Source: Moniliella sp. 'wahieum' (lineage: Eukaryota). From it: a stretch of DNA of 64,000 nucleotides. Shown piece after piece: positions 1-57,774 of this stretch. The translations under genes were made by a program, and so were the position numbers. The stretch spans positions 372,001-436,000 of the forward strand of contig RSEE01000013.1 in NCBI GenBank assembly GCA_003971905.1, given 5' to 3'. The stretch's first letter is position 1, and each line of letters starts with the position of its first letter. Under the pieces are notes generated by a model, which worked only from the letters and a program-made list of their open reading frames with translations, made no database searches and had not been told where the DNA came from.

Positions 1-1663
1 ACCTCGCCCACCTGGACACCACGTGGCACACCCGGAGTATGCGCGTTTCGTGCGCTACCCCTACGCTCTTGTTCCTCTCTGCGCTCCAGAACGCAGAGTT
101 CCGCGCCGCCGCTGAGCGCGAGGGCTGGGCCGCCATGGCCCGCAGCCAGATGCTGGGCCACTGGGCCGTATGGTTCGTTCCTGTCTCCCGCCTTGCGCCC
201 ACCGCCCCTGCTTGCTGACCCTAGCCGCCCCTCCCTGTTGCCCCTGCACAGGCGCATGCCGGCGGAAGAAGACCAGCCCGAGGGGTCGTCGGCGCCGCCG
301 CCTGCCCTCGTCCCACCGGCGCCTAGTGAACACTGAGCTGAGTCTCACGTGCTGGGCGCGAATGCTGATGCATGATGAGCCTCATCGCTGCGCGCAGCCC
401 CAAGGGCCTGGCGTCGGGCGCTATCGGGCCCGAGCGTTGTGGTAGATGGGATGCCGGTGTAATAGGATGGTCACCAACAATCGATAACCGGTAACCCGAA
501 CGGCGCTCCGAGCCCAAACCCGGTCTTCCCCCGCCTTCCGCGCTCTTGCACATGTGACATGTGATGCCAGCACGTGGGGGGCGCGCCAAGCAGCTGCGAC
601 TCAGTCGTCGTGCTCACTAACACGCCGTCCGTCGCAACAGCGTCCGGCGTGCGCCAGCACGGGTGACGCTCACCCATGTCGGCCGAGTAGGGAATATCGG
701 CCGGGGCTCAACTCACTAATCAATCACGTCGAAGCCAAGACCGAAGCTGGGCGCGGGAAGGTTAGCCCAGCATTGGCCTGTCTTCGACTCTGCGTCTCGG
801 CCGCTCAGGCCAGCAGCCGTCGCATGCTTGCTGACTCGCGTGTTCCTTGCCTCCGTCGGGCCCCCGGCCGCACTAGTCACTTACCCTAAGGCCTCCCTCT
901 CTGGCCCCTCCCGCCCCCTCCCCCTGCCCCTCCCCCGCCTCTCCACCCTTCAGCCTCGCCACTGCCACGCTGCCGGTGGCTCTCCCCGCGGTGGCCGAGA
1001 CATGGAAGCCGCCTGTCCATGCTGTCAGAAGCTCAGCGCTGAGTCGGAGCAGCATGCTGCGGGTGCCTCGGACCTGAGGTGCCTCTCTTGCCCAATTCTT
1101 TGCCCTGTCGTACATGTCGCCGTCACTGGCGCCACGCCGCAGAGCATCTACCAGCTAGCAGGATGAATTCATATTGGCCTTGAATATTGCATAGCTGGAA
1201 ACTTGATCGACTTGATCTTGGGCCCACTCTCGTGGGTCCTCGTCACCGGCCACTCTCGCTTCTCACAATCTTCGGCTATTTCTCTCTGGGCGCCTAGCGG
1301 AGGGGCTGGAGTGCAACTGCCCCTCTCCCTCCCCCACCCTTGTTCCTGTCCATGGCTCGGGGAAAAAGCATGATGCATGAGGCGTGGCCACTTGGTACTA
1401 TCACACTGCGCCCTCGGCGCCGGTCACATACACACTTTGCGCCCAGGCAGAGCAAAGGTCCTGCAACTGTCACCGTTGTCACCAATCCTCGTTGAGGACA
1501 GTCTCCCGCGGCTCAGTCTCGGTCTGTGCCATAGTCATGGTTCCTTGAAGGGTAATGCAGGTTTTGAACTACCTTTTCGTGCGCCAGGTCTTTCCTCCCG
1601 CAAAAGTCTCGCTCCTCTTGGCACAACCACACCACCATTGCCATTTCCACTCCTCTGCAGGTC

Positions 1664-3619
1664 ATGGAGAATCTTTGGCCTTTGGCAGGTACGCCTCTCC
1701 TCCCTCCAGGGAGCACGACGGGTGCAGAGGGTGAGGCGAGCTGTGTCCTCTCTCCTTGCGAGAGTAACGCTGCTTTCGCCACACCCTCCTTTCATCTTGG
1801 GCTCAACGGTGAAGACCCTCTTGGCTCGCTGCACACTCCCGTCGCACCCAGACCCCTTTCTTTCATGGCCTTAGCGTCACCTGTTCCATCGACAGAGCTC
1901 TGGGACCCCAACAATGCCTTGGCCACGGGCGGGTTTCCGTCTCTTTCTCCTCTCTTTCAGCAGGACGAGCCACTTCAGGAGGTCGGAGGCATCATGCCCT
2001 TCTCATCTGTCGAGAAGGAACAATTTCCTTATCTCAGTGTCGGCTTAAGCCCTCCGAACTCGGCGACTTTGGAACTGTTTCCCCCGACATCACCGTTGGT
2101 CTCCCCTGCCCCCTATGCCGTGCAAGCTCCGCGCTCCCACCGATCGCACTTTACTCTCCCCACATTCCATCCCTATGATCACAAGGGCGCTCGGCGCCCA
2201 AGTCTGCCTCGCCCTTTTCTCGGGTGATTGAATTGGCAGAGGGAAACCAACCGCTACAACCCCGAAATGCAGCCCCTCTTGGCGAAGCAAGTTCAAGTTC
2301 CTCGCCCGCCACCTTCGTCGGCGGACACTGCAGAGTCCACATCGTTATCCGTCGATATGCCGTTTCCCCTCTCGGCCGCTGATTCAAGAACCGCATTTGG
2401 GCCGCCTCCGTACCTGTTGCGCTTGCCCCTACACTTGATATCACAACCCTGCCGCTACCCCTGGCTGCCAAGTTGCCTTCGGTCCTCTCCCAGGTCCCGC
2501 TGAAGGTACGAAGGACCCAAACACGTACAAACCTGGCACCAGTACTCGCGGCAATGGCTCAGTGCGTCCTCCTCCCCTTCCATCCAGGTAACTAGAAAGA
2601 TGCAGAATATACTAACGTTTGTGTGGGCAATTCAAAAGGCGCTTATCAGTGACGCTGTCCCTCTGCTGCAAAACGGGGTACACTATAACCTAGGGATCAC
2701 AGAATTGAGTGATACATTCGTCAAGGTGTATTACACGGACGATGGGTGTGAGCCGCGTCTGGAGAACGAATCAGTGACGACCCGTCAATGGGTAAGGTCT
2801 ACCTTGCCCCTGTGCCGTCGCGACGGGTACACTTTGCCCAGCAGCAACTCGACAATCTGTTGAAGCATACTGCTCTTCTGTCGGGGGGCAAACAAGGATT
2901 TGTGCTGGAGGACGTGCCGGATTGGGAAGAGCTAAAGGAAGAGTTGACGGCTTCTGGACCGTTCAAAACGGACCGTATTTGGGAAAAAGTAGTGGTCGCT
3001 AAGAAACGATGGGATGAGCATGAAGAATACTCATCGTGTCTGACCGTTGCCGCTCGCGCGACTCGGCACCATTGGTGGCGCACTCTTCCTCCTCTCCGAC
3101 CGCATCTGCACCGCTCACGTCTGTCGGCTCGGATCCTTCCCGATCTACGTCCACTTCCCTCGTGCCTGGGAGCACCATGGGCAACACACTTGCCTTCAAC
3201 TCTGCATCCTCCTGCCCGTCACGTACTGGTGCTCGGTACGAGGAAGCAGAGGGCCTACAGGCCTCCCAACTTGCCTCTTCCTCTCGGGCGTTGGCTGAGC
3301 GGTGTACTGCCGTACCCGTGTCACGGCCAAGGTGCGTACAGACCGTCGTGGGGTCTTGGTTTCCATCACAGACAGACGTAGGATGTGCACCGCGCCCACG
3401 GATCGCAAACAGCGAGCCATGGTAAGCAAGTTTGTGCATCAGTTGGCCGCCGATCAACTCGATCTCGCCGAAGTCCAAGCCGTCATCAAGGTCATCCTTT
3501 CTTCCCCGCTGCTCTCGGGCCATGACCGGCACTACTACTCGGAGTGGCTCTCGTCTTCCCGCTATGCGCAAGTCCTACGTGCAGCGCAGGTACGCAAACA
3601 ACACACTGCTAGCGCCTGA
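1664..3619 (+). CDS. Hypothetical spliced protein (S/P-rich N-terminus, unrecognised C-terminal region); boundaries approximate
   Basis: Chain of + ORFs 1664-2227, 2228-2503, 2600-2863, 2788-3381, 3302-3619. A clean intron at 2588-2638 (GTAACT...TACTAAC...AAG) joins ...SSSPSIQ to ALISDAVPLL in frame. Possible 5'UTR intron 1552-1660. No family recognised. Confidence 0.45.
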
Positions 3620-7987: not shown

Positions 7988-9468
7988 GGGGTACTCCGGG
8001 GGTTGTCAGGATGGGCGGGGCGAGTGTGGGTCGCGAACGTAGGCTCGCGTCGCTTCTTGGCCGGCGGGCGAGGGGGTCGCTGACGCGTCAGTGGAGGTGG
8101 GGGCGGGATCGCTGTCATAGCGAGGGCGCTTCGTGCGGGGGGGCGCTGGGAAGAGGCGATGTCGCAGGGGGCATGGTGACTACAGCGTCGCCGACGCCGA
8201 TCCCGAGGCGAAGGGCAGCGACGCGATGGTGGTGGCTGTGCTCCGGCCAAGTCCCAAGCCAGCCAAGCAGCCGACGCGTGACGGCGCGGCGTGCACCCCG
8301 CTGGACCATCCCGCAGCCCCCGCCAATTCCGCCTTCCGCTGCTTACGTCAGCCATCCCATCGCCCCCCCCCCCCCCCGCTCATGTCGTGTCGCCCCAATT
8401 TCGGCAGCCACTGTCTACTTGCCTCGTCGTGTCATGCGAATACGCTAATCATGGGTGCTGCACTCATTGCTTGGGGCAAGATGAAGCTGAAGCTTGAAGC
8501 TTGGAGTAGAGCTTGAAGCTAAGTCCAATGTGCTCGCTCCGCGAAACAGCAAAAAGATTGCCAGGGTGCTGTAAAAGGAGAATGAGATCGATGAGAGGGA
8601 ACAGTGATCGTGGTGAGGGTGTATATATAGGTTGAACTAATACACTCGCTTCATTGGGAATTTTCGCTACCTCTCGCGCGCGTCGCCCTTCCCCCTCCGC
8701 CTGTCTGCCTTCTGCTCCATGTGCCCTCGGTATTCTTTTACATCTTTCCCCAACGGTGACGACTATATTTCCGCCCTTGTCTATCAATAACGAGCTGAAT
8801 GGGCCTGCATGGATTGTGCGTCTGTAAGTCTCTGTATAGCAACCGCTATTAGTGAATGTCTCTTCGAGTTCAGTTGAACATTGAAGCTAATACTACTATT
8901 TGAGGAAAAGGGAATTACACCCATCTTCCGAGAGTGTGGCATGGCTGAGGCCTGGAGGGACTGAGTAGGAGTAATCCTAAGAGTAACCGCGAGTACGGAG
9001 TGTTGAGCTCCTTATAGTAGGCCTGTATACGAGTGCATATATATCCTGCTGGCTGTGCATGGGACAAGTGTTCCACACAACGTGCCTTTCTTCCGCCGCT
9101 CGTAACACGTAAACACTGGCCTGGTGCATATATAGGCGGTCCCCGCTGCGCCGACAACAACCGTGGCGCAAAGCCCCTTGCGCCCTTTAGTTCTTGCGCC
9201 CTTTCGCAATATACCGCCGCCGGACGGCTGGGCTTCCTGGTTCTCGGCGGACTCGATATTCTCCTGCTTTCCCCACCACCCGCCACCCCCTCTTCTTTGT
9301 CTCCCGCGTCTGGCACGCTGTCCCTGCCCCCCTTCGCCCATATTGTATCCACAACCTCATCCATATCCTCCTGTACCCCTTCTATATCGTCCGTGCCCCC
9401 ATCCCCTCTAATCGCAGCCTGGTTACATCCATACCAAGCATAAAAGATGCGCATCAGCCTGCTCCTCC

Positions 9469-10439: not shown

Positions 10440-11412
10440 AGCGTACTGCCTCATGGGGCACGTGGATGTCCCCCCGTCTCTCTCGGTTACATTACATTTC
10501 TGTCATGCGTTTTTCTTCTTCTTCCGGTCATGTCAGAAGCGGAGCGGAGGTTCCGCCCGACGACACTTCTCGCTCAATTGCTCCTTTTCTATCGCTGTGT
10601 GGAGGAGAGCCAGACACATCGTCCCCCTCACGTCTCACACCTCACATGCACGCAACTTGCCGTCATCACCCCGTATACGCTTTCATCCCAATCCCACCAA
10701 CAGAGGTTCATTTTGGCTCCGATCACTTTTTTCATTTTATCGTCACTTGAGTTGGTTCTTTGGTCGACAGGTCTTCTGCTCTGGCAGCAAAAGTCTCACC
10801 ATTCTGCGCGTGGTTCCCTGCTCAAAGTCAGGTTCACAAATCATCGAGATGTCCATTTGTTGTGCGTGGGTCTGGGAGCGTCAGTTGAGCGCCAGACGCG
10901 GTGTTGGTTGAGGTTGAACGTTGAGTGTAGAGGGTGCTGCGCGCGGCCCGTTTGAAACGATTGGGCGGGCAGGCACTAGGCACGGCAGGCACAGGCAGGC
11001 GCCTTGCCAGCAGCGGCAGCCCGATAGCTGGAAACAATTCAGGCGCTGAAGCGCGCAAGTGGGATGACGTGAATGGCGGGTGGCGCGTGACGGCTGGCGC
11101 GATGGGTGACGGGTGCTAGTGTTGGCCAGATGGGGTCGAGGAACAGGGCGAGTGTGCGGTGCAGCAGGCCGGGGCCAGTATGGGCGATGCGTCATGGGCG
11201 TTGGCTCAGCGCTCCGCCTGAGCGCGACCAGGCAGCTGCGCGTGTGCTGAGCTCAGCCGCCAGACACGCTCGTGCCGCGCCCAGGCGCTTGCACCGCGTC
11301 CCAGGCCCAAGGGCGCCGGAGCAGGCTGCTGTCCTCCCCCTGGGTCCTTCTCCCTCGGCCCTCCTTTCCGCTTCCTCCTCCATCCGCGCACCTTCCTCCC
11401 CCCTCCCTCCCC

Positions 11413-13415: not shown

Positions 13416-13811
13416 AGAAGCTGGCTTCGAGCAAGCCCAAGCCCAAGAAGGCCAGTGGCGTTCCGCCCCCACTCAATGCTCGGGTTCTGTCCCAAGGCAT
13501 TGGCTTGGCACTGAGCGCGTCAATTGTCAAAACAACCCGCGCGCTGCCAAGTACATGTTCAGCTGAATGGGCCTCCTATCCCTGCCTCCCCCACATTTTT
13601 GCCGCATTGCCCCTGTACCTCGCACTCCTGCCTGTCTCTCAAGTATTGCATACAGACCCCCCCCCCACACCTGTTAGATCTGGATCGGATTAGAACAGGT
13701 CTTCTACTCGCCTGGGCATCTCAGATCTCATCGCTGAAAACGAGCGCAACAAGTCAGTTTCAGCTGATAGGAGCAAGGAACAGAGAAAGCCGTAGTTATA
13801 CCCTTCCACCC

Positions 13812-15103: not shown

Positions 15104-15106
15104 GGT

Positions 15107-15592: not shown

Positions 15593-18162
15593 ATGTCATA
15601 CGGATACGGAGGCAGCCGCAACGGCGGTGATTACCCGGACTACTCGTCCGCAGCTACGGAGGTGGTGGTGGTGGCGGCGGCTACTAACGGCGGTGACCGT
15701 TACGGTGGCGGTGGCGGCGGCTACTCTAACGGCGGTGACCGTTACGGTGGCGGTGGCGATCGGTACGGCGGTGGTGCTGCTGGTGACCGGTACGGTGGAG
15801 GCGGAGGTGATCGGTACGGTGCCAGTGGTGGCGACCGATACGGCGGCAGCGGTGGTGACCGGTACGGCGGCGGGGGAGGCGACCGTTATGGAGGCGGTGA
15901 CCGCTACGGCGGCGGTGGCGGCTATGGCGGAGGTGGCTACGGAGGTGGCTACGGAGGGTACGACAGCTATGGTGGCGGGGACCGCATGGGCAACCTGGGT
16001 GCCAATTTGCGGTCGGTTGACTGGGCCACCCAAGCGCTTCCGCCGGTCAAGAAAGACTTCTACAAGGAAGCGCCCTCTGTTACCGCGCGTACGCCCGAGC
16101 AGATTGAAGCGTTCCGGAAGGAGAAGCAAATGACAGTCCGGGGATCCAATGTCCCGCGTCCGATCGAGACGTTTGAAGAGGCCGGATTCCCCGACGTGCT
16201 CACTCAAGAGCTTCTTTCGATGGGCTTTTCAAGCCCCACGCCAATCCAGTCGCAGGCTTGGCCTATGGCCTTGTCAGGCCACGATATGGTCGCTATCGCC
16301 GAGACGGGGTCGGGGAAGACCATTGGATTTGCGCTGCCCGCCATTGTGCATGTCCATGCCCAGCCCCCGCTCAAGCCCGGTGATGGGCCCATTGCTCTCT
16401 TCCTTGCGCCGACGCGTGAACTGGCGAACCAGATCCAAGGCGAGTGCGACAAGTTCCGTCGCGCGTCCCACATCAACACCGTCGCGGTATATGGCGGTGT
16501 GCCCAAGGGCCAACAAATCCGAGAGCTGTCGCGCGGTGCCGACATTGTGGTTGCCACGCCAGGCCGGCTGATTGACATGCTGGAGGGCGGCAAGACCAAC
16601 CTGCGCCGGGTGACGTATGTGGTGATGGACGAAGCGGACCGTATGCTGGATATGGGCTTTGAACCTCAAATCCGCAAAGTGCTCGACCAAATCCGTCCGG
16701 ACCGGCAAACGCTCATGTTCTCGGCCACCTGGCCTCGGGACGTGCAAAATTTGGCCCGCGATTTCCTGCACGACGGCTACCAGGTCAACATTGGTAGTCA
16801 AGATTTGGCCGCGAACCACAATGTGACCCAGGTGGTAGGTCATGACTGACTTTGACAAGCGTTCCAAGCTTGTTTCCCACCTTGAACACATTAGCCAAGA
16901 GAACGCCAAGGTCATCATTTTTGTCAACACCAAGCGCACCGCGGACGAGTTGACCAAATTCCTGCGCCAGGATGGCTGGCCCGCTCTCAGCATTCACGGA
17001 GACAAGCAGCAACAAGAACGTGACTGGGTCCTGGCCCAGTTCAAGTCGGGCGAATCGCCCATCCTCGTTGCCACCGCGGTGGCATCGCGTGGTCTTGGTA
17101 AGTCCGTTTTCCCATTTTTAATTCATTCTCTTACCTTGTGTATTTCTCTTGTTTCTTCCCAGGCGGCCGCTCTTTTGGCATCCTGCCGTGCCTCGAACAC
17201 GGTGGACGATCCTCCTTGCCTGCTGCTCCCCTCCGCCCGCACGGCGAGGTAGGTGGGTTTGGGCAGACTAGTCAGTGCCTACTGTGGCTGTGCTTGAAGA
17301 CCTTTGGGGACTTGTCGGGATCTGTTTCCTCGTCTAGGGGGCGGAGAGCGAGACTGAGACACATTGGCCAACATGTGTTTCGCCCCGCTTGGGCCTGGTA
17401 CGCTGGCTGGGCAAGGGGACGCGCCTCGTGCGGATCGACTTTGTGGGCGTCAGGGCGTGCTGGACTTGCGCCTTTTGTCGGCCCCACACAAGGAGAGATG
17501 GCCGCGGGTAGCACGAGATTTCTTCTTTGGGGAGAGAAATGGCGCATGTGGACTGGACTGCTTCTTTTTTTTCCTTCTCCCTTCTCCCTTCTCCCCCCTC
17601 CCCCCCTCCCCCCCTCTCCCTCCTCGCCTCTCCCCTCGCCCATGTCCACATCGTCCCTTTCCTCTCTGGGGTTTCCCTCTGTTTCCGGTCCTGCTGCGCA
17701 GCCACCGGCGCAGGACTGGTTCCCATCGGTGCATACTGACGGTTCCCCTCTCTCGTTTGCAGACGTCAAGGACATTTCGTATGTGCTCAACTACGACATG
17801 GTGGGCAACATTGAAGACTATGTTCATCAGATTGGCCGTACCGGCCGTGCCGGTGCCAAGGGCACAGCCATCACCTTCTTCACCTCGGCCAATGCCAAGT
17901 CGGCGCGGGATCTGATCAAGATCCTTCGTGAGGCTAAGCAGGCTATCCCCCCGGAGCTGGAAGAGATGGCGGCCTACTCGGGCGGTGGCGGCGGCGGCGC
18001 TACCGCGGTGTGGATCCCGTGCGGGGGATACCGGGGCGGTGGAGCGCGCAGGTACGTCTGTCTCCCTCGCAATGCTTTGCTATTGGGCGCGCATGTACTG
18101 ACTGACGATTTGGGGTTGGCAGTGGTCCGAATGCCTACTCGATGGGCAGCAGCCGGTGGTAA
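15593..18162 (+). CDS. DBP2: DEAD-box RNA helicase Dbp2 (DDX5/p68 orthologue); exons 15593-17097, 17763-18051, 18123-18162
   Basis: GGDRY/YGG-rich N-terminus; Q motif ([10 protein letters not shown]), [77 protein letters not shown]-terminal SSRW*. Long intron 17098-17762 (GTAAGT...TACTGAC...GCAG) at the RGL-D position; short intron 18052-18122; frameshift near 16840. Confidence 0.97.
17098..17762 (+). other. 665-nt conserved-position DBP2 intron with internal splice signals
   Basis: 5'SS GTAAGT at 17098; branch TACTGAC ~17734-17740; 3'SS CAG at 17762. Internal polypyrimidine tract plus AG at 17161-17162 and internal GTAGGT at 17249. Confidence 0.9.
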
Positions 18163-19498
18163 GGCGGATCTTCCCCTCTCTGTAGTAGCTGCTTGCTTGC
18201 TTCCTGGCCACCATGTGCCAGGGTGACGCGGCGTAGTGGAGGGTGCTGCATGCGATCTGTGTGATCCTCTGTGGCCGTTGCTCCACTGATGAAGTTTTTC
18301 TCTTTCTTGTTTGCTTAGGCTGGGATGGGATGGGGTGTGAGACGCAAGGCAGAGACTAAGGGTGGCAGAGAGCGAGGGGGGGCGATCGGGCGACAGGATG
18401 ATGGATGGGATGTTGGGACCCGTGGTCCCGTACTTAGGCCAAGGCGCCTCATCACCTTCACCCCTGATTTGTCCTCCGAAGCCTCCACGTGTATACTCAG
18501 GCTTGTCTGAACCCCTGTCTCTAGGTGTGGCACAAGGCTTAGACCTTAACCACCACCATCGCGATTGCATTGCTCTACATTTCCAGAGGTTCTTCACCCA
18601 TCCCTTGGGTTCCTCCGGTCTTACATGGGATGTGCACTACATGCACGTGGCTCCACACGGCGCGTGCCGCTGGACGTGTGCTGCAGCTGCATTTGCGCTC
18701 GCTCGGCAGCCTGCACTGGCGCGGTGGCTGGGCGGCGGAGGCGGCCCAAGTAGGACAGGTCGCTAGCGTGCGTGCTCCGCATGCCCCCGGCATGCGACAG
18801 CTGTCGGGCCAGTGGCCGCGCGGGGGCGCATGCGCATGCGCAGCCGCCCGCTGCCTGCCGCCGCCCGCGCGAGGGGAGCGCCGGTAGCACTGCGGTCGCC
18901 GGTAGGGCCACCTGCTCGCGGCTGGGGCCCTGCGCTAGGCCTCCTTCGCCCTCTGCGCAGCTCGGCGGCAGTGCTTGTCCGTCGGCGCACACAGGCGCAG
19001 ACACACGCCGCCCGCCAGGCCCCCCCGCAGCACCCACTGCGGGCACTCGGGCGCACGTGCCACACCAACACCAGCCGCGAGCACGCCAGGGCGCGCCACA
19101 ATGCCCCCCTCCATGGCCCAATGCAGGCGGCGCCCTGCCTGCGGCTGCGCCCCCCCCCCATTTCTCACCCCCCACCACCCCATCCTGCATCCACGCCGGC
19201 CGCTGCCACGTCACACGGCCCACATCACCCCTCGCGCGCGCCCTCCCCGTCGCCTGTCGCCCCCACTCCGTCACGCGCCGTGCGTGGATGCTTCCCCAGG
19301 CATCACACAGCAAACAGCATCCTCACCGCTCACTCACGTCACCCCACCCCGCCCCCCTCCGCCGCCGCTCGGTGACGTCAGCCTTCAGCACGGCGTCTCG
19401 CGCGCCCCTGCGCCGCCAACCGCCCTTTTCAGCCCGCCTCTGGCCATCGCCTGCGTCTCTGCTCCACCGCCCCTCCCCCCTCCCCCCTCCACACCACC

Positions 19499-21168
<1,670 letters not shown>

Positions 21169-22045
21169 GCTACCTGTCACGGATGCCACCGGCCGCTCCG
21201 GATCGGATCTGGGTCGTGGTGGTGCTGTGTGGTTTGCACCAGGTTGGTGGGATAGCTTGGGATTGGCGCTTGGCGCGCGCGCTCGTTTTGCATTGATGGG
21301 TCGTCTGGATTCTGGGCACGTGTAGGATTGTTCCACGTCGGGCGCGATGCGCATGGTTGGTTCTACGATCTCCGCCCCCAACTGGATGTTTCCACGTTCG
21401 TTGACGTGCCTCTTATTTATCGCCAGGGAACTGGGTGGGGTGTATGGATAGTCTAGTTTGGCGTGGTTGGTTTCAAGAGGGCGGACACAGGTCGGTTCGG
21501 CTTGTCTGTCGAGAGCCCACGCAGTGGGTGGGGCACGAGCGCTCGCCGGCGGGCAGGCTGGTATCTGAGCTCTGATCCCAAAAGCCTGCTGCGTCCGTCG
21601 TCGAGAATAAGGGGATTTGGAGTGCATGTATGACAGTGGTGCTGTGAGAGCTTCGAACATAGGCCTCGGCAGACAAGTCTCCCCGGCTATTCTATAACAC
21701 TCTTCCATCCCCCGTGCATTCTATTTTCGGCGAGTGCGGTTTGTACTTTGGTTCAGTGTACGAAGGGGGACTGGCAGATGGTCGCTATCAATCTTAACCT
21801 GGACCGGCCTTAGGCCATCAAGGAAATACAGAGAGCGTATACAGCCGCGATACCCAATGATCTTAATGATCGTTAAGGCATCAAATGCGTCTTCAAGGAG
21901 CATCGAAACAGAGGGGACCGTGCACCTCTTCGCGCATTTCCATTATTCCGCCCTGCCGGCTGGACGGGCGTAGAGTAGAACATTTCATCTCATTTTGTCC
22001 GTCGCAGCGCTTCTTTCCCGTTCCACCCCACCTCGCTCTTCTCCC

Positions 22046-22111
22046 TTGCCACCGCCTTGCCACCGCTTTGCCACCGCCTTGCCACCGCTTTGCCACCGCC
22101 TTGCCACCATG
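22046..22111 (+). repeat. Six tandem 11-mers TTGCCACCGC(C/T), the last ending in the ADE2 ATG
   Basis: ttgccaccgcc ttgccaccgct ttgccaccgcc ttgccaccgct ttgccaccgcc ttgccaccATG. Confidence 0.95.
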
Positions 22112-23967: not shown

Positions 23968-23968
23968 A

Positions 23969-24052
23969 GCCAACCAAATCACTCCAAACCAAACCAAACC
24001 AACCCAAAGCCAAGCCAAACCAAACCAAACCAAAGCAACGCAACGCAAACCA
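23969..24052 (+). repeat. Imperfect (CCAAA)n pentamer microsatellite in the ADE2 3' region
   Basis: gccaaccaaatcactccaaaccaaaccaaaccaacccaaagccaagccaaaccaaaccaaaccaaagcaacgcaacgcaaacca. Confidence 0.85.
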
Positions 24053-24816
24053 AGTACATACAGGACAGATGCGGCTTTTCGGGACACGATGTTGTGCTTG
24101 TCTTCGTGATCAATATTTACTTGTCCTACTAGTGGGTGAAGAACGGTGAACTAATATGATCCACCAGTCAAATCGCATTTCTTGCATCGCACGTACTATG
24201 CTCGCCGTCCGAGTCCGCTTGCAGCGCTGGGATCTGTATCTGAACAAGAGAGGCAGGGTACCTGGTCAGCTGACGCCTGATTTAACGTAGTAGTGTAGCA
24301 CGTATTCCACAATCTGCTCGTGACCCCCCTCCGTGGGTCCTCGAGGGCACATCGCACTCGCACCTCCACCTTCTTGAGTCGGTCGAAACGGTGCGGAATC
24401 CGCATCCTGTGGCTACACTCCGCCTGGGGCGCAGGCGCGTCGCGAACAGTCGAACGTACGAATGGATAGGATGCACGAAAGAGACCGAGGAGAAAAGGAA
24501 CACTGTTGAATGGAATGTCGACTATAGTACCTGTAGTCCTCCCATCAATCAACCAATCAAAGTCCTCCACACCCATACCCCAATCGAATCGGAGCACCGT
24601 CGGCTCGAGACGCCCAGTCCCAGCCGCAGCGCACGCCGGCCCGTCGAGGACCATAAGTGCCAAGTGGCTAGTGACTGCGATGCCCGTGACGGTTTGTTCT
24701 GCTGGCTACGCCTGGGCTATCCTCTTGTCGCCCGCCAGGAGGGCGAGTGGTTAAGGAATGGCCTGTCGCTGGGGTGCACGGCTGGCAGTCAGCGTGTACT
24801 GGAGGGAGTAATGTGG

Positions 24817-24928
24817 ACTCAGACTGAGTACTCAGACTGAGTACTCAGACTGAGTACCGATGCACCGATGCAGATGCATAGGGTTGAACGTTGGTTGAAC
24901 GTTAAACGTTAAACGTTAACCGGTAACC
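24817..24928. repeat. Palindromic micro-arrays: (ACTCAGACTGAGT)x3 and a 7-bp-phased GTTGAAC-GTTAAAC-GTTAAAC-GTTAACC-GGTAACC array
   Basis: Read directly at 24817-24855 and 24894-24928. Confidence 0.9.
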
Positions 24929-30867: not shown

Positions 30868-30998
30868 TGAACGTTGAGGCCTTGAGGCACGCAGGCGGCG
30901 GTGGTGGCGTGGTTGATACGTTGATACGGAGAGCGGGGAACATGAACATTAAAAAAACGTTGAACGTTGAACGTTCGTTGAACGTTGAACTTGAACTT
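30868..30998. repeat. (TGAACGT)n 7-bp palindromic arrays
   Basis: TGA ACGT TGA GGCC at 30868-30881; AACGT TGA ACGT TGA ACGT TCGT TGA ACGT TGA ACT TGA ACT at 30956-30998. Confidence 0.9.
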
Positions 30999-33420: not shown

Positions 33421-34802
33421 CGCCCTCGGAACAACTCCAGCGCTGGTGTGGCTATTCTTCAAGGACAATTTATTCAATGGACACTGGTGGTGGGTGGATT
33501 CGCCTCCTTTGGGGGCCCACCTCCCTCCCTCTCTTTCGTCTGGTGGAAACTTCGCTTGCATTTGTTCTTACCCTTGCGTTTCCATACGCCCCCTTCTGCG
33601 GACCTTTTCTTATCTGTAATTGTACATTTCCCTCTCCCTCGTTTTCTGCATCTGCCCTCGGTGCACAAACAGAAGACGATCTATACCTACTGCTGCATTG
33701 CTCCTTTCCTGGCAAATTCAACGAACAAGGTGAGGGGCACATATGCCGTTTCTTCACCTTCCTTGGGTCATACGGTCATTCTGCATGCATTATGCGTTTT
33801 CACATCAAAGCGTGCACATATCCCCTTTCAGCGCCCCAGACCTCTTACACCGTAAGCCTCAGGACGATTGCGCGCCGGGACAAGGATCCCTGCCCCGTTG
33901 ATCCGAATGCATAATCCATGGCCCACAGATGAAAATGGGAGGCGCGTTCCCGCATATATACGGTTGTATATGTCGCCGGCAGGGGGAGTGATGTAGCGTG
34001 GCAGTTGGCACAAGATAACGGAAACCCACTGGGTGCACAGGCGCACGGACCAAAAGCCAAGAAGTAGGAGGGCGGTTGAACGTTGAACAGGCCAGGCCTG
34101 GGCTGGAGGAGGCTGGAGGGCGTACATACATATCAGCTGCAGGCCTGCAATCATGGATCAGATCTCAGATCTAGGGCCGGCCTGCTGCTTCGGTCTGCTT
34201 GGTTCTGTGAAAGAAAGGAGACGGTGTAGTGCGCCCTCTTCGGACGAGGCCGATGAGGCCATGAGAGTGGGGCAAAAAGCACGCCGGCAAAGCTTAACAA
34301 CGCGGTGGGGGGGGGGCGGTGAGAGGTACTGAGAGACACTGGGGCCCGAGGCCTGAGGGAGGCCTCTGCGAATTGGAATGGGCACGCCTCGCCTCCCCTG
34401 GTTGGTATTACTTACAACTGGGGTAGCCGAGTGTGTGCCCCCAAACAGAAGAGAAGAGTCAGCTGACTTGGTCTCTTTCACTCACGCCAAGTCGCAAGTG
34501 TGAGCCAATTATTGATTACCCCGCCCGCGTTCAGAAAAAAAGTGGCGCTTTTGGGACCGCACTAGTGGGGTGTCCTTATGTCCTTTGGCGTTAGGCCTGT
34601 GCGGCGGGTGACCAGCCCGTCGGTTACCCCGCCTTGGAGATTGAGCTCGGTGTGGCGTTTAATGTTTTTAATCCCACACCCCGCTCATCACGTCCTCCTT
34701 CACCACTACCACACCACCACACCACCATCACCATCACCAGCAATACCCCTTTCCCACACGCATGGCAACCCCACCAGCCAGTTGGAGCGCATCATCCCAA
34801 GG

Positions 34803-40160: not shown

Positions 40161-40320
40161 ATGCATGACTAGTGTGACCTAGTGCTAGTGAAGCTAGTGA
40201 CCGGTGACCGGTGACCGGTGACCCCGCACGTTTAATAAACTCGTGCTTCTTATCACGTACCACGCCGCGCGATGATCGGTGACGCGGATGATGCATGGTG
40301 ACCGGTGAGATCGATGACGG
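40161..40320. repeat. TGA-CCGG / CTAG / TGCA / GATC palindromic arrays
   Basis: TGA CCGG TGA CCGG TGA CCGG TGA at 40198-40221; TGA CCGG TGA GATC at 40299-40312. Confidence 0.9.
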
Positions 40321-41034
40321 ATGGCCGATGTCATTCATCCCTGCGAGCTGTTGCATAGCTGAGATACCTGTGCGACATCAATGGGAGCGTTCGTAGGCTG
40401 TCCCCCTGCTGCCCTAGCGCTTCGTCACTGCCCTGCCCTGCCTCCTCCTGGCTGCGCAACTTTCTTTGGCTCCGCTCTCTTCGCTTCCTGTTGGCTTCTC
40501 CCAACCACCTCAGCTGCTACTGTATGTTTCATAGCTTCATCCCACTGTATAGTCGAGCGGACCGCTCCGTCTCTCCCTACTCATTGGTACTGAGTACTCA
40601 CTGAGTCCCGCTCATCGGCCAGCCAGTTAATTAACAGCCCGAGGAACTGACCCTCACAGCTGCGGATGTGATGCACATCATTCTTTTTTCGTTTTCATTT
40701 CCTCTCTTCCAACAATCTCTCTTAGTCATCGTGGAAAAAGGCGCAACTGCCAAGATCGTATGTCTCTGTTTGGCGCGCCTAGGCATGTCTTGGCCAGCAA
40801 TAAAACCTGGTGAGGCTGCAATTAGCGCCCAGGCTGAGCGAATAAACAAGTGCCCGGAGTGATCAGCTAGTGATACTCGAAGCAGCCCTTGAATCAAGTT
40901 CGGCCTGCTTGACCATCTAAAAAGCAATGCGCCAAAGAGAGTCTTCATTCGATCTAGCTATGCTCGATAGAACGGATGAGACCATTGCCCCTACAGAGTG
41001 CCGTGTGCATTTTTATTACTAGGATATAAAATGA

Positions 41035-43241: not shown

Positions 43242-43472
43242 ACTTGGGTGCAGGGCTTCAGTGAGAGAGGAGTCCTGATTCGCGTGGAAAGGCGGGGGGT
43301 GGTACTGTAACTCTGGTGAAGATGGGGTGGCGAGGTGGTGGAGGGAAGCGGAGAGAAAAACAAGGAAACGAGGAGGAGGGGAGGGGGGCTGAAGGGTTGC
43401 TGAGGATGGACGGGCTGTCCTGGCTTGCTTATGGGGCCCATATCGGCAGCTTACACGCTTACGCATCTGGAG

Positions 43473-46400
43473 TGACTAGTCACAGTAACTAGAGTGAGCG
43501 AGCGCTGAGCGAGCACCGCTCCAACCCGAAACAGAAATCGGCATTGGGGACCTGAATCGTTTGAGGCCATCTGGGCGAAGACGGGCACGGGGGAGGTGGG
43601 CCGCATCTGGCGGGACCAGCAAGGCCGCGGGCACTGCTCTGCGCGGGACCTGTCTTCCCCGGCCACCCCAGCTTCTGGATATCAATGTCCGGTGACCGTG
43701 ACCGGGTGACCTCTTAGAAGACAGTGCTGCCGCTACTTGTCATCATGCATCATACATCATGTTTCCCGCGGGGGGGAACACCCTGCGGAGCGGGCAACAG
43801 CAGGCATGCCGCCTGTGTTCGGCCATGCCAGTCCAGACCCTTGGGGCCACGGTGCATGGTGTGACACATCCGCTTCTGCACCCGGCACTGCCCCCCTGCG
43901 TATTGAAGCACTGGCCGCGGACGGATTGGGAATTGTGACTCCGGAGGATTTGAGACACGTCATCGAGGCAGCTGCAGACTGCGGGGGTGGCGCTGTGCGC
44001 ATCGCGCAAGATCAATTCACTCAAACTGCCTCATCGTCACCGATCATCGTCATCGACCACCCATCATCGGTCTCATCTCGCACCAGGCCAGTTCTAGTTC
44101 AGTGTCAGCTGTTCAGCTCTCCCCTTAGGCCTTAGGCTTAGGCCGCCTTATCGATGATCGATGACTGTCTTTGTCTGAGATCTGACGATGTTGTGACGAT
44201 GCCGCCGGTAGCTTCAAGTGCATCATGCATCGAGGGCATCAGCTCTCAGCGAGTGTGCTCAGCATGGCCCACCAGGCCCCAGGGCCCACCCACCCACCCC
44301 AGTCCCCTGCTGGTCTGCTCACATGTCACATGTCACAAATGTCCTACACCGGTCCGACTCGTGCGCCCGGGTCTCCACATGGACACGTCTCCATTTTCTG
44401 TCGTCGGAAGGTCTGAGATCTGGTGCGTTAACCTACCAGCAACTAGTAACCGGCAACTGGTCAGCCCGTGACATCATTGATCATTGATCATCGATCATTA
44501 ATCATTCAGAGAAAGAATGCCTCCACGGTGTTACTTGTTAAACAGGTTAACCTGGTATACCTTCCTTTTTCTTTTCTTCAGTACTAAACAATACCCCTCT
44601 CCCTAGCACACTATTATGATCATTGTCGGTAAGCCAGTGACCAATGAGCCCTCTGTGAACGTTGAACGAACGTTGTTTTGAACGTTTTTTGAGAACCACC
44701 TCAGGCCTCACGATTCATTCAGCATGGTCCCTGTTGTTGCACGATAGATGATGTCGATGATGCATGATGCATGATGCCCATACTCGGTTCAGAGTCGGTA
44801 CTCCCGGAGCTCAGGCCCTTCAAGCATGAATCTTTTGAAGTTTAAGTTAAACTCAATGTAAGCTTGCCACGTAAAGCCACCTGGGACCATTTTCGCCACA
44901 GAAGAGGTTTAGCCCCCCCCCACACCCCGCCCACAACAGTGGTTCAAATTGACGGCGACCTCACCGATCACCGTCGGCCTCCTGAAATAAGGCCTCTCAT
45001 CAGTACTCAGTGCATCAGATCTCGCTTCTCACCGATTTCCCCTCACTGGCTTCACCACATCCCCGATCCCGACGGCCCGTGTGGAGGTTAAACTTCAACG
45101 TTGAACGTCGTTGAGACGTTGAAAAGGCTTGTAAAATGTAAAAGGCCACTTGAGTTTTCGCGGACATTTTCTAAGGCCTAAACGTACTAAGTTTTTAAGC
45201 CACAGAAGGCTGAGATCTGAGACTGATTAAGTGGACCGGGGAGGGTACCTAGAAAGGTCGTTGCTGACGCAAATGTGCGTGCGAGCTTTTGCTTCGGACT
45301 TCGTCAGTGTGTGTGGGTCCTCTTCCGTTAATATTCATCCGCACACTATCGTTGGACGTTGGACGTTTGCCTGCCACCACCGTCGGGGCCACAGAGCCCA
45401 TGCAGGGCCTCGTTCCTCCCCAGCAATTCAAATCCTGGGGGTGGAAGTATTATGTCCATCTTCTGTGAGCCGTTGGGACTGTCAAAACTATAGTAACTGG
45501 TGCCCCACCATTGGAAGACGTCCTGATGGGGCTATTGTTGTATCCGAGCTCAGGTCTCTAAAGCGCGTGAGCCTGACAGGCTAATGGCTCTCCAATACGT
45601 GGGCGCAATCATACTGTGTATAACATATTGTGTATAATATTCAGTGTTGTCGTGGTGGTCTGTAACCATGCAACCGGTAACCCACAAGCAGGAACCCCCT
45701 AGAGGGATATCGGCCATGGGTCGTGGGCCGTCTGGCTGATGCGGAATAGATGGCTAAACAAAATGAGAAAATTGGATCTCTGTCCTAAGTATGTAGATCG
45801 GGGAGATGAGAGTGAAGCTGTGATGTGCGCGACTGCATATATGAAGCTTGAAGAAGGAGGGGGAAATAACGTTACGTTTTTTTACGAAGAAGCTTTAGGA
45901 GAGAGGGTGCGAAAAGAGAGATAAAAACTTTGGTTTTTTGGGGCTTTGGGTTTTCAAACTCTCCTAGGAGAGGGCTAGGTCGCACAGCACTAATGAGCCG
46001 CTCAAGTGTTCAAGCTATATGGGAGCCCGTCTTGGACCTGAGCGACTGAGAGCCTCTGTCGGCTGAGCGCTTTATTAGCAGCTGATCCGATGGATATGTT
46101 GTTGGTCGAACTAAGGAGCCTAAAATATAGTAGGTAGTACGGTGCACATACAACGTGTAGGCATGTAGCAGTGTTCCTAACCAGACGTCAAACCAGGCGT
46201 CAAAAAGTGTTAATCATCTCAATGCAGTAGCAGTGTGGTGGGGCATGTTCCGTTTGCGGATGCGGTGATACTGAGACATGTCTCAGCGAACGCGAGGAAC
46301 AGTAATAAAAAGCGAAGTGCGTTATAATACTCCCGAGAATACGTACCAAATTCTCTGCAGCACCTACCAATGCTCATCGATATCAGCATCTTAGCGTGTG

Positions 46401-46679
46401 CGCTTATAGGGGTATAGCTGGGGGTAGCACTTGCTGGCACCGCTGTGGCTTCGATTAGCTTGTTCAAAGAGACTGTGGGGCAGTGGAGTGAGTAGGTGAC
46501 TGTGGCGGGAACACGTGGTACTGCGGTCACCGGAGCAATCACCGGTCACCGGTCACTAGGTCACTGTGGAAGTTGTCGTTGCAGGTTGTTCCTAGTGTTC
46601 CTTTCTTCCAGAGAGAGAGTAAATACCCCCCATGGTTCGTACACGGCGCCAGAGTTCAAGCTTCAAGCTTCAAGCTTCA
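43473..46679. repeat. Dense field of TNA-[4-bp palindrome]-TNA micro-arrays in the long intergenic region upstream of creA
   Basis: Examples at 43473, 44125, 44148, 44176, 44319, 44656, 44701, 44758, 45000, 45095, 45211, 46539, 46656. Confidence 0.85.
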
Positions 46680-47375
46680 AGAGACAGTGTCCGTGTATTG
46701 CAATAAGGACACTATTCAGTACAGGGACACGGGAAAAAACGTCAGCAGAAGCGACTCAAGAGCCTCAATGGAGGTGGATGGCCGCAATGAGGTCGAGCAC
46801 TGCGCTCTTGAGTGCCCTTGACCTTGATTGCTTGGCTCTCGTTGCGTTGTCCATTCTTGATAGCTCCTGCATGTGTGTGGCCCTTGTGACCCCTGTTCTT
46901 TCTCCCTAGTACCACAGGATGCCGTCTTTTTCTGTTCATCTTCATCTTCGTATCAACATCCCCTTTAAGTGCTGCAAAGAACTTCCATCTGCTACGCGTG
47001 CTCTGCTCGACTTTCGAGCCATATACAAGGGCGTGGAGGTGTTCTTGCATATTAATGGGCGGTGCAATCGGATTGGTGCTTTTCATCTATCCGGTTTCCA
47101 TATACATGTTTGCGGGCGCTGCTCTCCCCTTCAACTCCGACCTCTGTTCAACAAGTTGGCATACGCCACACGGCCTCATCTTCAGCTTGAGTCCCACTAA
47201 CGCGATTGATTGATCTCCTCTACGTGATTTGCTCATTGAGCTGCGCCAAGATTACTGGCAATGTTGGCCTCACCACACAGCCGCCTTGAGCCAAGGCCCG
47301 GAAGCGTACAAGAAAGAGAGTAGGCATAGATGATTCCGGCATGCGAAGACAGCAATAGTAAAATCCGCCTCGCGC

Positions 47376-51415: not shown

Positions 51416-51924
51416 AGTGAGGGGATTCCCAAATCCTCTCTCCGTTGCGTTGCGTCCTTGAAACTGGATTTCAGGTTCGCCCCCCTCTCCATTCCACCTT
51501 TCGCTGTGCCTCCTTTACAATGTTCTGTCCCGACCCCCCCCCCCCCCCCCACCTCTCACCCCTCCTCTCAGCTTCGTATGAATGCACGCTCCGTCCCATT
51601 TCTGCTCTATGGATTCGCTTTTTTTGGTTCGCTCGCCTATGTGCTCGCCAAGAAGGGGTTAAGCCAGTCGGAACGAATGGATTCTACCTCTTGGCTTGGC
51701 ACGTGAATGAACCCTTCAACCGCCTCATCCAAAACAATGGACAAGCAGTGTAGGCCCTATCAACGCACGCGCCGATGGAGGCATGCATAGATGATCCAAG
51801 GAAATGATGTAAAACGATAATGCGGCCAGTGGAAGTGTGCGAGAAGAGAGGGAGCGGGAGGGAAAAAACATTGCCTCTCTCCGCCCCACCAAAAGAAGGG
51901 AACCCCCACGGCAGGGGAGCGGAC

Positions 51925-55786: not shown

Positions 55787-56717
55787 ATGAGTGAATCTCT
55801 GCAATTCAAGGGCAGCCTTGTCGGCCACAAGGGCTGGGTCACGGCCATCGCGACTTCGAGCGAGAACCCTGACCTGCTCGTCTCCGCCTCGCGCGACAAG
55901 CACGTCATTGTGTGGAACCTCAAGCGGGGTGAGGACGACATTGGCTACCCCAAGAAGATCCTTCACGGCCACAACCACTTCGTTTCGGATGTTGTCCTTT
56001 CGTCGGACGGCCAGTTTGCGCTGTCGTCGTCGTGGGACAAGACGCTGCGTCTGTGGGACCTCAACTCGGGCAACACTGTCCACCGCTTCGTCGGCCACAC
56101 GTCGGACGTTCTGTCAGTCTCCTTCTCGGCTGACAACCGCCAGATCGTGTCGGCTTCGCGCGACAAGACGATCAAGCTGTGGAACACGCTTGGCGAGTGC
56201 AAGTTCAACCTGACCGACAAGGGCCACACCGAGTGGGTCAGCACGGTCAAGTTCTCCCCAACCCGCAGACGCCCATCATTGTGTCGGGCGGCTGGGACAA
56301 GGCCGTCAAGGTGTGGGACCTGTCGCAGATGCGTCTCAAGGCCAACAACTATGGCCACACGGGCTACGTCAACACGGTCACCATCTCACCCGACGGTTCG
56401 CTCTGCGCCTCGGGCGGCAAGGAGGGTTCGGTGATGCTTTGGGAGCTGTCGGTTGACAGGCACCTGTACTCGCTCGAGGCTGGTGACAATGTCAACGCGC
56501 TCGTCTTCTCGCCCAACCGCTACTGGCTGTGTGCGGCGACGTCGTCCTGCATCAAGGTCTTTGACCTCGAGTCGCAGTCGGTTGTCGACACGCTTGTGCC
56601 CGAGATGGAGGGCAACGGCAAGGCCCCCGAGGCTCTCTCTCTGCCTGGTCGGCGGACGGCCAGACGCTCTTTGCTGGCTACTCTGACGACGTGATTCGCG
56701 TCTACTCGGTTCTCTAA
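55787..56717 (+). CDS. ASC1: RACK1 / Asc1 / Cpc2 WD40 ribosomal scaffold
   Basis: [111 protein letters not shown] is intronless; probable 5'UTR intron 55680-55776. Confidence 0.97.
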
Positions 56718-57774
56718 AGCAAGGACGGGTGAGAAGCTCTCCATGTCTCGCTGTCGACGCTGTGCTCCGAGCGGAGCAACGCCAACTTGTTTTGATCCGC
56801 CCCGCCCCGGTCTGCATCCTCAGGATGTGTTGCTTTCAAGTCGAGCCGTCCCGGTGTGCGTCCCGGTGGGCGTGTGACTCAAAAGGCGCAGGCACTCTGT
56901 GAGCCTGCGGTGGGTCGACCGTGACCGGTGACCCCTCTCAATTGCATCGATTGATCACTCTCACTCTGCTTTGGGCGGTTGGATGCACGACGCGTGCTAG
57001 GGCATGCTAGGCTAGGTGCGGTGGGCGGGATGGGTAACGGAAGTGGCACGACAGCGACAGGGTATAGCATGGCAGGTATGACGTCGTCGCGGCGCGTCAT
57101 GTGAGGCATAACGTGCATAACACGAACGAGGGAGCTGTGGCGTTGCGGCGGGGAATTGGCCCCGGAGGTGCGACGACACGCCAAAAAAGACGACAAGACG
57201 CAGCCAAGTCCGCCCCCAGTGCTCGCTCCCCGCAAGGGCTGGGCACTGTCGTGCCGGAACGGGTTGCGGTTGTACGTAGGAACAGCAAACCCCGCCTGCC
57301 GAGAGCAGCTGATCGACAAGCCTGGGAGCGAGTGCAGGCACTGGGGGAACTGGGGGTTCAGCGCTTCGGATGACCGGGACCCCGCATAAGCTTTGCCAAC
57401 GTTATGATGCGTTGGGGGAAGGAACTATGCACACTATGTGGCTCAGGGGGCTGTGTCGCCTCGTGCTTGTCGCTCTGCCGTGCCCTCTCGGGGTATAGGC
57501 CTGCTAGGGCATATTCTGTTTCGCCTTCTGTATGGCGCCCATCTGAAGTGGTAGATCCCCCTATGTACTACTGTGCGCGTTAGAACCCCAACGCCACAGC
57601 AGCAAAAGGCCCTAACACAGCCGTGCTTTCGCACACCCTTGCGAGTGATATAAGAGAGGCCAAAGTGAGCAACATTTCTGCGGCCCTACCACCCTACCAT
57701 CACTGCATGCCCAGCACCATCCCACCAACCTATTCCTACTTCTGATTGCGTCTTTCACTCTCACCGCACCGTCA

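Follow-up and report, generated by a model that had tools for sequence, protein, structure and literature searches.

The 64-kb window analyzed here (positions 372,001 to 436,000 of contig RSEE01000013.1 from Moniliella sp. 'wahieum') is dotted with a short sequence pattern, in which two T-N-A triplets (N, any nucleotide) flank a four-nucleotide palindrome. The pattern obeys strict sequence rules, is specific for T-N-A and is symmetric with respect to left and right, and its palindrome is copied from the adjacent flank. We consider it probable that these sites are scars left by the excision of a cut-and-paste transposon of the hairpin type, whose target duplication would be 7 bp long and centered on TNA. 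The analysis is based on the window and on the literature.

RESULTS

T-N-A triplets are paired around palindromic spacers

A preliminary description of the window, made from the sequence alone, had listed 33 start positions of the pattern. All 33 carry T-N-A, a 4-nt palindrome and T-N-A, and all are among the 61 sites found by our exhaustive scan. About 18 further sites were absent from that list, for example those at 1033, 8081, 24825, 24838, 30979, 31089, 31664, 40299, 43743, 44488, 45172 and 45842. The preliminary description also regarded the choice of the palindrome as free and counted 11 of the 16 possible palindromic tetramers. The count has to be raised, as 14 of the 16 occur; AATT and TATA are the two that never serve as a spacer.

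Among all T-N-A pairs separated by 4 nt, 61 have a palindromic and 102 a nonpalindromic spacer, which corresponds to 37% palindromic spacers against the expected 6.25%. Dinucleotide shuffles (n = 200) gave 6.4 +/- 2.5 pairs in the palindromic class (maximum 17) and 107 in the nonpalindromic class. The entire excess is thus palindromic (61 versus 6.4), while nonpalindromic pairs are at expectation (102 versus 107), in agreement with the earlier emphasis on self-complementary spacers. As a control for composition we used 27 unrelated metagenome contigs (170 kb) found with the Asp-tRNA synthetase open reading frame (ORF) of the window; they include no close relative (best identity 49%), and 24 of their 504 spacers (4.8%) are palindromic.

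The enrichment is confined to T-N1-A flanks with a 4-nt spacer, so that the pattern also withstands comparison with other triplets and other spacer lengths. When all 64 triplets were considered as direct flanks, only TGA (26 palindromic and 19 nonpalindromic spacers), TCA (16 and 21) and TAA (5 and 3) stood out. For direct TSA..TSA pairs (S, C or G), only spacers of length 4 are enriched in palindromes (42/82); lengths 2, 3 and 5-10 are at chance. Likewise, of 48 flank/spacer combinations (flanks T/A, A/T, C/G and G/C with 0-3 inner bases, combined with spacers of 2, 4 and 6 nt) only T-N1-A with a spacer of 4 is enriched (48/98). The central N is mostly identical in the two TNA copies (42 matches against 8 differences), as expected of a target duplication. 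Among the nonpalindromic direct spacers, 23 of 40 are a single change away from a palindrome, compared with about 16 expected. The usage of spacer dinucleotides follows the background frequency of TSAxy in a suggestive manner only (Spearman 0.48, p = 0.06).

The palindrome is copied from the adjacent flank

The site had initially been taken for a 10-mer. Its partition into T-N-A, palindrome and T-N-A stands, but the size does not, as the repeat runs 2 nt further on one side and the unit is therefore a 12-mer. In this unit, TNAxy-y'x'-TNAxy or its reverse complement, two direct copies of 5 nt enclose 2 nt that are inverted from the neighboring flank. The window holds 58 such 12-mers in 36 merged loci, whereas 200 shuffles produced 0.33 on average and 3 at most. 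The 12-mers show no strand bias (29 versus 29; C 23 versus G 20), as expected if an enzyme of two-fold symmetry acts on duplex DNA.

Period-7 identity extends at least 2 nt past the 10-mer in 35 of the 38 arrays that have identical flanks and a palindromic spacer. The corresponding values for the controls are 15/47 (nonpalindromic spacer) and 6/51 (mixed flanks, nonpalindromic spacer). The extension is found on the left only in 14 arrays, on the right only in 14, on both sides in 7 and on neither side in 3; most of the 28 arrays extended on one side only are bare 12-mers, about 1.7 copies long. A mixed array at 24901-24928 is instructive, because its left units agree with the 2 nt preceding the array and its right unit with the 2 nt following it. 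Hence, the palindrome is copied from the local flank and not donated by a transposon end. This explains why the spacer is 'free but palindromic', and it argues against nucleotides left behind by transposon ends.

Longer arrays all measure n x 7 + 5 and reach up to 3.9 copies of the 7-bp unit. Their phase is fixed: they start at the T of a TNA and end at the center of a palindrome. Arrays of the same type have unrelated flanks and must therefore have arisen locally and independently. Such head-to-tail 7-bp units resemble heptanucleotide microsatellites, and growth by slippage on the 5-nt repeats is plausible. However, microsatellites formed by slippage alone would consist of identical units in an arbitrary phase and differ in copy number by whole units, unlike the arrays with their n x 7 + 5 length. 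Slippage can create neither the fixed phase with its one-sided extension nor the mixed palindromes of neighboring units.

One formula generates the canonical form and its variants

Every form that we observed is generated by a single formula, TSD7 + rc(last h) + TSD7[k:], where TSD7 (TSD, target-site duplication) is a 7-bp block abTNAxy and rc is the reverse complement. With h = 2 (or 3, which yields the same letters) and k = 2, the formula gives the canonical form, in which exactly 7 bp are gained. On the opposite strand this product has the mirror form, which fits the 14:14 split between left and right extensions. If h is raised to 4-6 at unchanged overlap, the second TNA carries the complement of the central N. 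The resulting 'N-flipped' class is visible as palindromic spacers in 8 of 22 flank pairs with opposite S (TGA/TCA), where about 1.4 are expected, and the one-sided 2-nt extension is present in 6 of the 8. If k = 0, both full 7-mers are kept, giving +9 forms with 2 inverted nt (at 1202, 21856 and 44747), +11 forms with 4 inverted nt (40589 and 30966) and a +13 form with 6 inverted nt, represented by the array of 13-bp period (7 + 6) at 24817-24857. Finally, k = 1 produces +8 forms such as those at 30873 and 46551. Scans with the same formula centered on A-N-T, C-N-G or G-N-C returned 0-3 canonical forms, 0-2 variants and no +11 or +13 forms. Since the rare variants keep two complete nnTNAnn copies, they show directly that the block that would have been duplicated is 7 bp long with a central T-N-A, and not 3 or 5 bp.

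Both the flank match and the 7-bp copies bear on the first mechanism suggested in the preliminary description, namely PIF/Harbinger footprints in which a 3-bp TNA duplication encloses the terminal 2 nt of each inverted repeat. The palindrome matches the adjacent flank in 35/38 arrays, unlike an element end, and with 14 of the 16 palindromes in use, a separate element family would be required for each; in Tc1/mariner-type footprints the inserted nucleotides are element termini and constant within a family. It is true that T-N-A with a free middle base is the target core and the classical duplication of the IS5 and PIF/Harbinger group (PMC4561436), that the duplicated triplets are direct (42 versus 8) and that the order duplication + 2 + 2 + duplication mirrors mariner-type footprints. 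Nevertheless, the variants show 7 bp duplicated rather than 3, and the +7 scars with their flank-templated palindrome differ from the mostly precise excision reported for PIF/Pong/mPing (PMC4561436), in which imperfect products retain copies of the duplication and no flank palindromes. Moreover, where TNA directly abuts TNA (the fill-in form), TGA/TCA pairs have the same middle base in 29 cases and the opposite one in 27, a comparison made without a shuffle control. This suggestion is thus not supported, and we consider it very improbable.

Scar loci lie between genes

The avoidance of coding DNA, an impression gained at first sight, is confirmed: Pfam-supported ORFs cover 19,505 bases, in which uniform placement would put about 11 of the 36 merged loci, and none is found there. 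The loci are found both upstream and downstream of genes. They form clusters at 24.8-25.1, 29.9-31.7, 40.2-40.6 and, above all, 43.4-46.7 kb, with 13 of the 36 in the 44-48 kb bin, and perfect copies are interspersed among decayed ones. This is what one expects if sites are born repeatedly and locally and then decay neutrally. The sites can hardly be an artefact of assembly or sequencing, in view of their complete avoidance of coding DNA, their graded decay and their strict biochemical logic; moreover, no error mode of sequencing or polishing that would write TNA-centered 7-bp gains is known to us.

The intergenic location might also be read as a sign of selected cis-regulatory or structural elements such as homotypic binding-site clusters, three-frame stops or hairpin signals of promoters and terminators. 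Sites do occur between genes on both the 5' and the 3' side, the 7-bp register places TGA in all three frames, and some cores, for example ACGCGT, resemble known fungal motifs. This reading is at odds with a spacer that is free yet palindromic and flank-matched, and to our knowledge no binding protein requires such a spacer. In addition, both strands are used equally, there is no positional rule relative to genes, and perfect copies stand beside decayed ones, as in neutral birth and decay. Overall, we regard a regulatory origin as highly improbable.

The richest cluster coincides with an unusual stretch. Positions 43400-46700 comprise 3.3 kb of gene-free DNA with a G+C content of about 50% (59% in the window) and hold about one-third of all scars. 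Neither Pfam domains nor Rfam families or tRNAs were found in this stretch. An old transposon landing pad, a large promoter and a decayed element are the candidate explanations.

A model of hairpin-type excision

The flank-templated, TNA-specific geometry supports the earlier proposal that a generative DNA process, rather than a satellite or a binding-site consensus, writes the sites. The favored model, whose element, hairpin, joining steps and superfamily are all putative, is as follows. Upon insertion, the element would duplicate a 7-bp target nnTNAnn, in which only the central T-N-A is fixed. Upon excision, the transposase would seal each flank into a covalently closed hairpin with one 7-mer copy at its end. 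Host enzymes would then nick the hairpins about 2 nt from the tip, producing 4-nt self-complementary 3' overhangs (P nucleotides). End joining of the overlapping overhangs would give abTNAxy-y'x'-TNAxy, that is, the left copy, 2 inverted nt and the right copy minus its first 2. If the overhangs were overlaid and each was ligated to the opposite recessed 5' end, the two strands would carry the two mirror forms, which replication would separate at about 1:1, a step of our own construction. Alternatively, the same sequences would result if one side were trimmed by 2 nt. The N-flipped, +8, +9, +11 and +13 forms may stem from hairpins opened at a greater distance from the tip or from ends joined without overlap. 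The 7-bp arrays may grow through re-insertion into footprint TNAs and/or slippage on the 5-nt repeats. Insertions into coding DNA would be lost to selection, with the result that scars accumulate between genes. The second mechanism suggested at the outset, a hairpin nuclease acting 2 nt from a TNA, comes close to the data, for which hairpins opened about 2 nt from the tip are the best fit, but the setting would be a transposon with a 7-bp, TNA-centered duplication. The mechanism of hairpin footprints itself is textbook knowledge; the finding is a new case and not a new principle.

The main alternative, though an unlikely one, is template switching during replication or repair that involves no transposase: a polymerase would copy TNAxy, switch strand for 2-5 nt and return at the quasi-palindromic TNA, and slippage would expand the product. 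Formally, the product equals a tiny inverted triplication (direct-inverted-direct), with a return after 2-3 nt yielding the direct class and one after 4-5 nt the N-flipped class. Small inverted triplications due to replication errors are documented, although at about 150 bp (PMC13334657). Across the whole window, short direct repeats (runs of at least 5 matches) exceed their frequency in shuffles 1.4-2.5x, and they do so at all periods of 4 to 16, not just at 7 and the multiples of 3; this points to a general surplus of small duplications in this DNA. The arrays also fold into weak hairpins with the TNA as the loop (-3 to -9 kcal/mol), but the z-scores are modest (-0.8 to -3.2 in five arrays, two of them beyond -2). 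More importantly, any p-N-p' triplet should serve for a switch, yet A-N-T, C-N-G and G-N-C centers are not enriched. Repair usually leaves heterogeneous products, in contrast to the exact geometry found here, and two full 7-bp copies with inverted nucleotides need a 7-bp staggered duplication, which template switching does not give.

Several other geometries were tried and rejected. A 5-bp duplication with 2 P nucleotides (the numbers of Transib or of long terminal repeat integrases) predicts a mirror product that is nearly absent (2 unambiguous cases), and 7-bp copies exist. Hairpins that have TNA as the loop and form at a 3-nt staggered cut would lead to a period of 5, for which there is no enrichment. 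A 7-bp staggered cut with plain fill-in would leave pure tandem TNA-centered 7-mers, of which there are only about 4, no more than for control centers. The stagger of a type I or type II topoisomerase was dismissed by reasoning only; the flank composition table, read by eye, shows no symmetric preference. At the outer target positions, a seeming G...C symmetry disappeared after removal of loci that had been counted on both strands.

Search for the element and points against the excision model

A number of observations weigh against transposon excision. First of all, the scars are the sole sign of the proposed transposon within 64 kb. Pairs of terminal inverted repeats (TIRs) of at least 9 bp with 3-bp duplications include a single TNA case among 56 chance-level pairs, so that TIR elements with TNA duplications, anticipated in the preliminary description, do not rise above chance in the window. 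A 7-bp nnTNAnn duplication with TIR-like ends is present in 4 of 16,275 pairs, no better than in controls. No transposase domain was found in the 258 ORFs of at least 110 aa in the window, nor in the 120 of 142 ORFs of at least 45 aa that were scanned from motif-rich regions. Second, no clear base preference is apparent at the four outer positions of the 7-mer in the 24 single-sided loci, and the 7-bp length consequently rests on the +7 gain and about 8 variant loci. Third, a density of 36 loci per 64 kb, with 13 in 4 kb, is very high for footprints. Fourth, the near-uniform 2-nt opening and the strand-wise joining are our own construction and not a documented outcome. The data are compatible with either re-insertion or slippage as the route to arrays, and slippage alone could grow arrays from a 12-mer. 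Finally, the target does not agree with that of hAT elements, in which the 8 bp usually have T as the second and A as the seventh base; here T would occupy position 3 and A position 5 of 7.

A 21-nt perfect inverted repeat connects 40194-40214 with 46539-46559, 6.3 kb apart. Each copy consists of four extra bases and a CCGG-type heptamer array, and the pair encloses a zinc-finger gene and the scar-rich region, with no matching duplication in the outer flanks. The pair is probably a coincidence of two arrays of the same type, though it could represent the ends of an old element. A foldback element with heptamer arrays as TIRs was considered for this pair and for 43741/44757 and rejected, as neither has matching duplications; like the first pair, 43741/44757 is taken for a chance agreement of same-type arrays.

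The same negative searches could be taken to mean that no element is involved. An element-free nuclease, for example a domesticated hairpin-forming transposase of this lineage, might repeatedly break nnTNAnn in open intergenic chromatin, with repair writing 7-bp palindromic insertions templated by the flank. If so, the genome would have a built-in mutator that remodels promoters and terminators and seeds 7-bp arrays. Such a nuclease would share the TNA specificity and hairpin-type palindromes with the favored excision model; no element or transposase was found in 64 kb, and the sites are strongly clustered in a few intergenic regions. On the other hand, that one 64-kb window lacks an element counts for little as evidence. 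To duplicate 7 bp directly, the ends of an element are normally joined by strand transfer to a staggered target; a site that a nuclease merely cuts would be duplicated only if both 7-nt overhangs were filled in, and then there would be no hairpins. We know of no system of this kind and consider it decidedly unlikely.

Comparison with known systems

As a first guess, the agent of the proposed excision would be a hAT-like family with 7-bp duplications. hAT elements prefer nucleosome-free DNA according to reports, and this would fit the intergenic clustering. The hAT, Transib, Mutator-like (MULE) and RAG systems form hairpins on the flanking DNA, which host factors open and end joining seals with a footprint (PMC5499845). 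In hAT elements, hairpin-capped flanks opened off-center and then joined leave a flank-copied palindrome between the target copies (PMC4561436, PMC5499845). The scars resemble those of hAT elements of the Ac/Ds and Hermes type in the retained target duplication and in the short flank-derived palindrome between its copies: the palindrome is the reverse complement of the flank in 35/38 arrays, and variants have 2, 4 or 6 inverted nt, which would be consistent with flank-hairpin chemistry. They differ in that 7 bp rather than 8 would be duplicated; among the subgroups hAT5, hAT6 and hAT7 with 5, 6 and 7 bp (PMC12730594), only hAT7 would fit. Furthermore, the footprints are unusually uniform and dense and build tandem arrays, and no hAT element (short TIRs, BED/DDE transposase, hAT dimerization domain) was found in the window.

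RAG coding-joint hairpins are preferentially opened about 2 nt from the tip. As in RAG and Transib reactions, off-tip opening that leaves 4-nt self-complementary overhangs would account for 2-nt palindromic additions beside the flank (PMC5499845). However, RAG and Transib duplicate 5 bp. The canonical scar does have a 5-nt repeat, but its non-overlapped variants carry 7-bp copies. In addition, RAG coding joints are heterogeneous owing to trimming and added nucleotides, whereas the junctions observed here are stereotyped.

A duplication of 7 bp is unusual, but two groups of basidiomycete cut-and-paste elements make one, hAT7 of rusts and Kyakuja (KDZ) of Agaricomycotina (PMC12730594). According to the same source, hAT7 falls into one cluster with the fungal and plant hAT elements Ac and Tam3. 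Kyakuja has 5'-CA..TG-3' termini and no TIRs. The duplication length of Kyakuja agrees with the scars, but no such element was found in the window. Both groups are described there from Pucciniomycotina and Agaricomycotina, not from Ustilaginomycotina, and footprints are not discussed. The supplement of PMC12730594, as far as searched, contains consensus sequences of the elements and gives insertion termini for the Harbinger and Plavaka families only; hAT7 duplications were not found in it.

The preliminary description knew of no account of the pattern. As to the palindromic footprints derived from the flank, this has to be corrected, since they are classical for hAT elements; this target, this density and array building were indeed not found in our literature searches, and neither was the uniformity of the scars. 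The 20 literature matches listed for the 10-mers are cloning or oligonucleotide sequences, judging by titles and abstracts.

Loci and other features of the window

The individual loci are listed in Table 1.

Table 1. T-N-A palindrome loci in the window; 'footprint', 'copy' and 'inverted nt' are used in the sense of the proposed excision model
Feature	Positions	Strand	Class
Canonical +7 footprint, 12-mer, TGCA core	366-377		
Canonical +7, TAA flanks, CCGG core	485-496		
Canonical +7, CATG core	553-564		
N-flipped, TCA..TGA, GCGC core	1033-1042		
+9 variant: 7-bp copy + 2 inverted nt + 7-bp copy	1202-1217	+	(2,0,0)
Canonical +7, TGCA core	1369-1380		
N-flipped 10-bp palindrome, CGCG core, without 2-nt extension	8081-8090		
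Canonical +7, partly expanded, AGCT core	8488-8499		
Canonical +7, ACGT core	10913-10924		
Canonical +7, GATC core	13719-13730		
+9 variant, both full 7-bp copies	21856-21871	-	(2,0,0)
13-bp-period array: 7-bp copy + 6 inverted nt, iterated	24817-24857		(6,0,0)
Mixed array: ACGT units match left flank, CCGG unit right flank	24901-24928		
Canonical +7, TGCA core	25071-25082		
Canonical +7, GTAC core	29922-29933		
Canonical +7, CCGG core	29945-29956		
Canonical +7, GATC core	30554-30565		
Canonical +7 (ACGT core), then +8 variant (GGCC core)	30866-30887		(2,0,1)
Two +7 footprints joined by +11 variant (7-bp + 3 + 1 inverted nt + 7-bp)	30959-30990		(3,1,0)/(4,0,0)
Canonical +7, both sides extended, GCGC core	31556-31569		
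Canonical +7, CGCG core	31662-31673		
N-flipped 10-bp palindrome in stop-to-stop ORF with Na/Ca-exchanger match; doubtful member	32861-32870		
Canonical +7, both sides extended, ACGT core	34075-34088		
Canonical +7, GATC core	34158-34169		
Array, 3 units + 5 nt, CCGG core	40198-40223		
Canonical +7, CCGG core	40297-40308		
+11 variant: 7-bp copy + 4 inverted nt + 7-bp copy	40589-40606	+	(4,0,0)
N-flipped, CTAG core, with 2-nt extension	43473-43482		
+8 variant, CCGG-type	43697-43711	+	(2,0,1)
Canonical +7, TGCA core	43741-43752		
Canonical +7, TTA flanks, GGCC core	44123-44136		
Canonical +7, TCGA core	44153-44164		
Canonical +7, GATC core	44174-44185		
Array, 2 units + 5 nt, CATG core	44319-44337		
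Mixed array, TCGA then TTAA core; TTAA unit matches right flank	44486-44506		
Canonical +7, ACGT core; decayed copies downstream	44656-44667		
Canonical +7, GGCC core	44699-44710		
+9 variant (both 7-bp copies), then 2 canonical units, TGCA core	44747-44776		(2,0,0)
Canonical +7, GTAC core	45000-45011		
N-flipped, ACGT core, with extension	45095-45104		
Canonical +7, GATC core	45211-45222		
Canonical +7, AGCT core	45842-45853		
Array, 2 units (CCGG core), then +8 variant	46539-46565		
Array, 3 units + 5 nt, AGCT core	46656-46681		
Canonical +7, CCGG core	56922-56933		

The window is nuclear eukaryotic DNA with a G+C content of 58.8%. The Pfam matches of its long ORFs are those of ordinary housekeeping genes and include a DEAD-box helicase, UDP-glucose pyrophosphorylase, fused PurK/PurE, 14-3-3, inositol polyphosphate kinase, Asp-tRNA synthetase, LSM14, Sec1, a WD40 protein and a SAPS protein. 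Rfam families and tRNAs were not found in the window. The proteins nearest to the Asp-tRNA synthetase ORF are from Ustilaginomycotina; Tilletiaria anomala provides the best named match (62% identity), and another protein reaches 83%.

Several repeats are also present. Poly-C and C/T-rich tracts, with 15-27 nt of nearly pure C, recur on the + strand at 8363-8377, 17593-17614, 19606-19632, 31757-31778 and 51534-51550. Several of them lie close upstream of + strand genes and are possibly pyrimidine tracts of promoters or 5' untranslated regions. At 22044-22108, an 11-bp unit is repeated 5.9 times (92% identity) near the 5' end of the stop-to-stop ORF with the first PurK/PurE (ADE2-like) match, upstream of the Pfam-matched stretch itself. 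Just downstream of the end of this ADE2-like gene, at 23972-24053, there is an AACCA pentanucleotide array of about 16 copies. Periodic repeats of 24 to 72 bp at 15664-15957, in the N-terminal part of the DEAD-box helicase ORF, probably correspond to a glycine-rich low-complexity coding region; they contain GGTGACCGGTAC-like units that are superficially scar-like but in frame. The GCGCAT hexamer array at 18807-18866, self-complementary as a whole and situated within a G+C-rich palindromic stretch, is outside the TNA class.

Implications

If the sites are indeed excision scars, this Ustilaginomycotina-like fungus would hold an unusually dense and legible fossil record of excision, with about 36 clean scars per 64 kb, each of them intergenic. 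The scars would then reveal which target rule the unseen transposase follows, namely a 7-bp duplication centered on T-N-A, where the host opens hairpins (for the most part 2 nt from the tip, at times 4-6) and how it joins the ends. The responsible family would possibly be hAT7-like or Kyakuja-like and as yet undescribed in Ustilaginomycotina. The simple sequence formula can be used for finding both the same process in other genomes and the responsible element. Excision would also account for 'microsatellites' that slippage alone does not explain. Finally, by adding short palindromes and tandem arrays of 7 bp to promoters and terminators, a cut-and-paste element would be a concrete source of regulatory variation.

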